NCBI GenBank assembly: GCA_951406725.2
Contig: OX597829.1
Span: 31,930,001 to 31,994,000, forward strand
Reading direction: 5' to 3'
DNA length: 64,000 nt
Origin: Octopus vulgaris
Lineage: Eukaryota
The position numbers were made by a program, and so were the translations under genes. The notes under the pieces are model-generated. The model ran no database searches. It had not been told where the DNA came from and was given only the letters and a program-made list of their open reading frames with translations. This document shows positions 63,764 through 63,856 of the stretch, one piece after another (positions within the stretch are counted from its first letter, which is position 1; every line of letters begins with the position of its first letter).

Positions 63764-63856
63764 TGTATTGATATATCAATGATGCTTGCCGAAGCCATCA
63801 GGCGGACACACAATGGCGAGTCTGTCTCCTATTTATTCAGCCATGTTCCTCTCTAA
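63764..63856 (+). CDS. PRPS1: PRPS alternative terminal exon 7b, distal ([30 protein letters not shown])
   Basis: T-rich tract plus tttcag| acceptor. Phase 0, 93 nt including TAA, intact. I saw no other PRPS exons between 7a and 7b. Confidence 0.92.

Follow-up and report, generated by a model that had tools for sequence, protein, structure and literature searches.

A tandem pair of alternative last exons in octopus PRPS1 predates the cephalopods

The window analysed, 64,000 nucleotides of an Octopus vulgaris contig (OX597829.1; G000:C16:31930001-31994000), carries a seven-exon class I PRPS gene on its + strand, with AG/GT ends at all exons. Coding exon 1, with the ATG, lies at 31489..31673, was located by tblastn with the N-terminus of protein P0122 and ends in a GT donor. 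Exon 2 (44820..45003) matched PF13793; exons 3 (47029..47127) and 4 (47379..47503) were confirmed, like exon 1, by an exact spliced translation. They are followed by exon 5 (50447..50620) and by exon 6 (51071..51230), the latter identified by its match to PF14572 and by the spliced translation, with a phase-0 donor that serves either of two last exons. These two, the proximal exon 7a (51877..51969) and the distal exon 7b (63764..63856), are intact tandem copies of 93 nt each, both on the + strand, with splice acceptors, and both code for residues 289-318. Exon 7a, with I295, V300, a TCN codon for Ser314 and a TAG stop, represents what we call class A; exon 7b, with M295, I300, an AGY codon for Ser314 and a TAA stop, represents class B. 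Exon 7b is a phase-0 exon of 30 codons plus the TAA, preceded by a pyrimidine tract and CAG. The tract with its AG acceptor (63734..63763, + strand) is 81% pyrimidine and has no competing AG in 50 nt, and the 3' UTR of 7b extends beyond the end of the window. By its sequence, the first AATAAA after 7a (52205..52210, + strand) is a candidate proximal poly(A) signal. Exons 1-6 spliced to 7a gave P0122 and spliced to 7b gave P0123, with 0 mismatches over 339 residues. Both proteins are annotated isoforms of Octopus vulgaris and O. sinensis, and O. bimaculoides likewise has both. The gene product is homologous to human PRPS1 over its full length, stacking residues included, as expected for a class I PRPS1.

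Among the best-scoring candidates in the genome we found one PRPS1 gene, a number to be read as a lower bound, and no third copy of the last exon was seen in the window or in the following 19.5 kb. A second PRPS1 gene or a retrocopy as the source of 7b was rejected: the other genome matches were a PRPSAP gene on contig C29 and a broken intronless copy on contig C5. The latter (L016, G000:C5:111100715-111101747) is frameshifted and 41-48% identical to P0122, and we read it as a processed pseudogene derived from the PRPSAP gene.

The use of 7a was seen in sequencing data. Contigs of 4/4 runs, from four studies and possibly of RNA, crossed the joint between exons 5 and 6 (50620-51071) and the joint between exons 6 and 7a, both at GT..AG, and the latter contigs extended 25 nt into 7a, beyond the 14 nt that it has in common with 7b. 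The stretch used for contig mapping excluded 7b, so that these data cover the exon 6-7a joint and not the 6-7b joint. Use of 7b is suggested by the annotated isoforms of the three octopod entries named above and by P0005, a cephalopod-like frame of 340 residues with a class B tail on a 1593-nt contig. High-depth contigs ended at 52296 in run X5 and at 52371 in run X6, near the AATAAA at 52205, which may be a weak hint in favor of the candidate proximal signal; contigs of X1 and X9 passed 54200. Depth in run X1 was 854 for the contig across exons 5 and 6 vs 632 at the 7a joint, an excess not present in X5. A ranking of the isoforms on this basis was dropped, as contig depth cannot rank isoforms.

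A preliminary description, made from the sequence alone, had placed the exchanged segment over the filament interface and the allosteric tail of PRPS, with the residues of both preserved in the two exons and differences at positions 295, 300, 315 and 318. Its residue numbering proved correct when matched to human residues 290-318 from PDB chains, and its account of the segment was borne out by residues from published structures. The filament interface is reported to consist of E298, R301, R302, N305 and E307 (Hvorecny et al., 10.1101/2022.06.27.496812; Lu et al., PMC10227994), residues 306-315 to constitute the allosteric site, ordered by the filament (Hvorecny et al., 10.1101/2022.06.27.496812), and S308, S310 and F313 to contact the allosteric ADP (Lu et al., PMC10227994). 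All of these interface and contact residues are kept in 7a and 7b, as are the positions of the deafness variants I290T and G306R and of V309F, given in the same table (PMC7403961). The two exons are identical at 65/93 nt and differ at 19/30 third positions, yielding four residue differences: I/M at 295, V/I at 300, N/H at 315 and M/L at 318. Compared to human PRPS1 and PRPS2 over residues 290-318, 7b is identical at 28/29 positions and 7a at 26/29. Position 315 lies at the edge of the ordered segment. A structure model of low confidence (mean pLDDT 55.7, tail below 50), from which no more than a helix at human 293-304 can be read, places 295 and 300 on the helix of E298/R301/R302. The likeness between the flanks of the exons was no better than that of shuffled sequences (118 and 132 of 200 shuffles reached the score). 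With a saturated synonymous distance, four conservative residue changes and unlike flanks, both copies bear the mark of purifying selection. A 7-of-8 match just past the stop codons of 7b and of the distal exon of L082, an annelid-like contig described below, was set aside as weak; an unrelated locus matches 7a there at 8/8.

The spread of the pair was followed in three protein searches (the best 120 of 1097, 120 of 878 and 120 of 7991 matches), in three cluster look-ups with at most 15 members from each of 30 clusters, and in a metagenome scan of which 79 of 381 loci were kept, a partial sample without brachiopods, echinoderms, amphioxus or tunicates. Among 19 same-species pairs compared, one of them a repeat of Biomphalaria, were 12 distinct mollusc pairs from three classes (two octopus entries, four oysters, a scallop, two abalone entries, Biomphalaria, Bradybaena and Pomacea) in which the core matched and the tail differed, with V/I at position 300 in 12/12. 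Over the last 230 residues of the core, 11/12 showed zero differences, and the Pomacea pair was shifted by an indel. The I/M difference at 295 was also present in the octopus, oyster and scallop pairs; class B tails of gastropods and heterodonts have no M295. Tails were identical within the pairs of Gigantopelta, Dreissena, Mytilus and Photinus. The Tachypleus pair was dropped as paralogues with 19 core differences, and the Candidula pair because of 3 core differences and V300 in both tails. The two Candidula proteins, P0002 and P0307, with their V300 tails and three differences in exons 5-6 on one contig, likely reflect a partial gene duplication or a haplotype.

Outside the molluscs, the pair was found on L082, with two last exons 2.6 kb apart in the octopus order. 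The proximal one (I295, V300, Ser314 TCC, TAG) and the distal one (M295, I300, Ser314 AGC, TAA) match their octopus counterparts, and exons 5-6 of this locus clustered with Capitella and Owenia (FastTree support 0.955, a placement on 110 residues in a core tree whose deep nodes are unreliable). Octopus and L082 are the two cases in which genomic exon order was observed directly. Capitella has a class A tail, identical to 7a at 29/30 residues, and Dimorphilus P0168 a class B tail; P0077, the core of which is identical to that of Dimorphilus at 243/245 residues, has a class A tail and may come from a sister species rather than being an isoform. Class B-like tails occurred in two flukes. The Nucella gene model stops after residue 299 and resumes with an I300 tail, as would be expected if the GT of the proximal Val300 codon had been misread as a donor. 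In annotation, where absence is no proof of loss, a single class was seen in some lineages: class A in Mytilus, Gigantopelta and Patella, class B in heterodont and unionid clams. In the annelid-like locus L055 a class B exon follows about 180 nt after exon 6, with no exon between. The pair is not confined to cephalopods, as the mollusc pairs and L082 demonstrate; it predates them and is common to snails, oysters and likely segmented worms. The split between molluscs and annelids lies more than 500 million years back, and the pair, too, is likely older than 500 million years.

We compared 11 fixed trees for 61 tails on a 30-site alignment; as residue 300 itself defined the class labels, there is some circularity in these tests. 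Species-level duplication required 137 steps vs 110-116 for the other trees and was rejected (AU 8e-5). Together with the same exon order in L082, this speaks against a recent duplication within cephalopods, the outcome that the preliminary description had itself named as contrary to its reading. A lophotrochozoan duplication took 114 steps, a spiralian one 113 (AU 0.019, KH 0.075, SH 0.52), and a protostome or bilaterian tree with all ecdysozoans on one side likewise 113. Swapping the class labels of the cephalopods cost one extra step (115 vs 114). Sites 315 and 318 underwent 16-18 and 18 changes, respectively, over the 61 tails and carry no deep signal because of this; site 300 underwent 3. 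On these 30-site trees the deeper placements were inseparable.

We favor, with a probability of roughly 0.6, a single duplication of the last PRPS1 exon before the mollusc-annelid split, which gave rise to alternative last exons that mainly swap the 3' UTR. In one outcome the exon 6 donor would join 7a and polyadenylation downstream of 7a would end the transcript; in the other, the donor would pass over 7a and be spliced to 7b, a further 11.8 kb away. Read-through to 7b would compete with the acceptor of 7a and the poly(A) signals that follow this exon, the first being the AATAAA at 52205. As each copy has a stop and a 3' UTR of its own, mutual exclusion would follow without a decay step. Both proteins would be full class I enzymes with equal catalysis and filament stacking, able to form mixed hexamers; equal stacking and mixed hexamers are predicted because no interface or ADP-contact residue differs. 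That either copy can stand as the sole one seen, for instance in L055, likewise points to near-equivalent proteins. The output of the switch would then be likely to lie mainly in the 3' UTR, as a tissue- or state-specific level, place or translation of the mRNA, whereas V/I300 and I/M295, on the E298/R301/R302 helix, would provide at most a fine adjustment. A 3' UTR swap is favored as the likely main effect on two grounds: the sole class-linked residue is a V/I exchange at a slowly changing site, which can be retained even if it does nothing, and lineages with a single copy are seen for both classes. Exon choice may also bring fine biochemical tuning.

The duplication may, however, be older; Ser314 and the diverged last exons of mites and ticks leave room for this. 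If it took place in the protostome stem, ecdysozoans would have kept the proximal copy, and the distal one would have been lost in most of them and have strongly diverged in mites and ticks. We consider this unlikely. Across 68 distinct exon DNAs, with the taxon of a locus labelled by tail likeness, Ser314 was encoded by TCN in class A (2/2, the L082 proximal exon included), in chelicerate- or nematode-type exons (8/8) and in 30/33 pancrustacean-type exons, and by AGY in class B (7/7) and vertebrate-type exons (2/2 distinct); corals have T or N at this position. This single character links 7a with ecdysozoans through a probably derived state, and 7b with vertebrates through a probably ancestral one. 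However, serine codon families also switch at invariant sites, with AGY in 10/66 exons at 293 and 11/68 at 308, and a switch in 3/68 at a further serine. Three mite-like loci (L020:2221-2304, L038:9030-9113 and L079:6411-6494) have a second, diverged, phase-0 copy of the PRPS last exon downstream, with an AG acceptor and 27 codons starting from residue 292, three residues shorter than usual; the five interface residues are kept, and 309-311 and 314-315 are changed. Homologous annotated tails in ticks (P0440 and P0441, X1 isoforms of Dermacentor, and P0448 of Ixodes) are strongly diverged, more so than the mite-like copies, and those of Dermacentor lack R301/R302. Against these observations, no second copy was present within 2.6-10 kb downstream in 11/11 pancrustacean-type loci, nor at a nematode-like locus and a further mite-like one, and a protostome-stem tree gains nothing in amino-acid steps over the spiralian one (113 for both). 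Furthermore, the acceptor before residue 289 is common to coral, arthropod and vertebrate loci, so that this clean phase-0 exon module may easily have been duplicated more than once, and such duplications are reported to recur independently (PMC9741552).

A functional extension of an origin at the base of the protostomes or earlier strikes us as more doubtful still. Here the duplication would have created a splice switch over the filament and feedback tail: the spiralian tails would tune polymerisation, and the distal mite/tick tail, with its remodelled allosteric site and, in Dermacentor, no R301/R302, would make a regulatory or filament-capping subunit. In mites and ticks, exon choice would then fill the role that gene duplication fills in the case of PRPSAP proteins.

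It appears improbable that cephalopods, gastropods, bivalves and annelids each duplicated the exon on their own, with I/V changes recurring at 300 or with gene conversion between adjacent copies. Class-level duplication is only 2-3 steps worse than the deeper trees (116 vs 113-114; AU 0.043), and once site 300 was removed it was not rejected, nor was a cephalopod-only duplication (AU 0.065 and 0.11); the class B tail of Haliotis, moreover, equals octopus 7a at 29/30 residues. Four duplications and six changes at 300 would nevertheless be required, and octopus and L082 have the same exon order and the same Ser314 codon split.

The preliminary description had gone further and proposed a pair that predates the protostome-deuterostome split, of which vertebrates kept 7b and arthropods 7a. 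A tree with pancrustaceans beside class A did obtain the best substitution score of the 11 (110 steps, AU 0.81), 3 steps better than the spiralian one, and 7b resembles vertebrate-type exons in its AGY codon as well as in its near-identity to the human residues. However, a control with pancrustaceans beside class B, on account of the shared M295, fitted as well (112 steps, AU 0.54 vs 0.67), and with site 300 removed it became the best tree, with 8/9 trees not rejected; the gain arose because a mosaic pancrustacean tail was moved next to either class. Insect tails indeed share V300 and N315 with 7a, as had been claimed; their M295, however, is that of 7b, and F296 and Y318 are peculiar to them. 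Assignment by 315 and 318 was rejected, because these sites flip: octopus has N/M in class A and H/L in class B, Haliotis H/L in A and N/M in B. I300 is found in chelicerates, myriapod-like proteins, nematodes and Priapulus, and I295/I300 together in corals, a hemichordate, nematodes, Priapulus and chelicerates, with H or N at 315; Trichinella and Plectus match 7b at 29/30 residues, human at 28. The likeness of 7b to vertebrates therefore appears to consist of kept ancestral residues, and pancrustaceans probably acquired V300 separately. No second tail was seen in one vertebrate-type locus (4.3 kb downstream) or in the deuterostome proteins listed, and no deuterostome with two last exons among the vertebrates and one hemichordate sampled. 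With about six extra exon losses needed by our count, which the score ignores, we regard this assignment as the least probable of all; of the age proposed, antiquity stands, and a protostome-deuterostome date is not established by the 30-site trees.

The octopus pair is comparable to known events in other genes. According to Martinez-Gomez et al. (PMC9741552), 77/236 human events of tandem duplicated exon substitution are C-terminal swaps, and the octopus pair resembles these: homologous, probably mutually exclusive terminal coding exons of old age, with isoforms otherwise identical. Those events seldom overlap ligand sites, whereas the octopus segment holds the allosteric site and the filament interface, and the text of that paper contains no match to human PRPS. 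The gene product itself is like the class I PRPS1 of Holozoa described by Karki et al. (PMC12238573; bioRxiv 10.64898/2026.06.01.728777), hexameric and with stacking residues kept, and octopus has a PRPSAP gene alongside it. Neither text, supplements aside, mentions molluscs or octopus, and the text of the preprint (bioRxiv 10.64898/2026.06.01.728777) does not contain annelid, protostome or tandem. In oyster, too, a duplicated exon gives rise to isoforms of a metabolic enzyme, in that case the alternative oxidase (PMC5589949). We found no literature on PRPS last-exon isoforms in invertebrates; the pair is apparently undescribed there, whereas its class of event has already been described (PMC9741552). 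PRPS acts as a gate to nucleotide synthesis, and the tail that bears its filament interface and allosteric site is commonly taken as fixed. Vertebrates diversify PRPS by gene duplication, with residues 290-318 identical in PRPS1 and PRPS2, whereas octopus varies this segment within one gene. The kept pair of tails thus provides natural variants and raises the question whether the choice between last exons regulates PRPP supply in invertebrates, in place of the paralogues of vertebrates. As the two octopus proteins differ at four residues only, a test of the tail effect would be cheap. A real biochemical switch is more likely to reside in the strongly diverged tails of mites and ticks.

Some further observations concern the gene and its surroundings. 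Ahead of the usual start Met, 31489-31551 codes for a Ser/Lys-rich N-terminal extension of 21 residues, and most mollusc models have an extension of 15-25 residues. Just past the start of exon 5 (region of 50531-50533), the octopus core, as in P0122, has a Trp in a motif at a position held by Arg, Lys, Gln or His in the other animals compared. Intron 1 seems, by impression from the sequence, to hold a decayed fragment of a helicase-type mobile element at about 43750-44620. Upstream of the gene, at about 20130-20870, some four 183-nt units form a tandem array that is also matched on contig C29.
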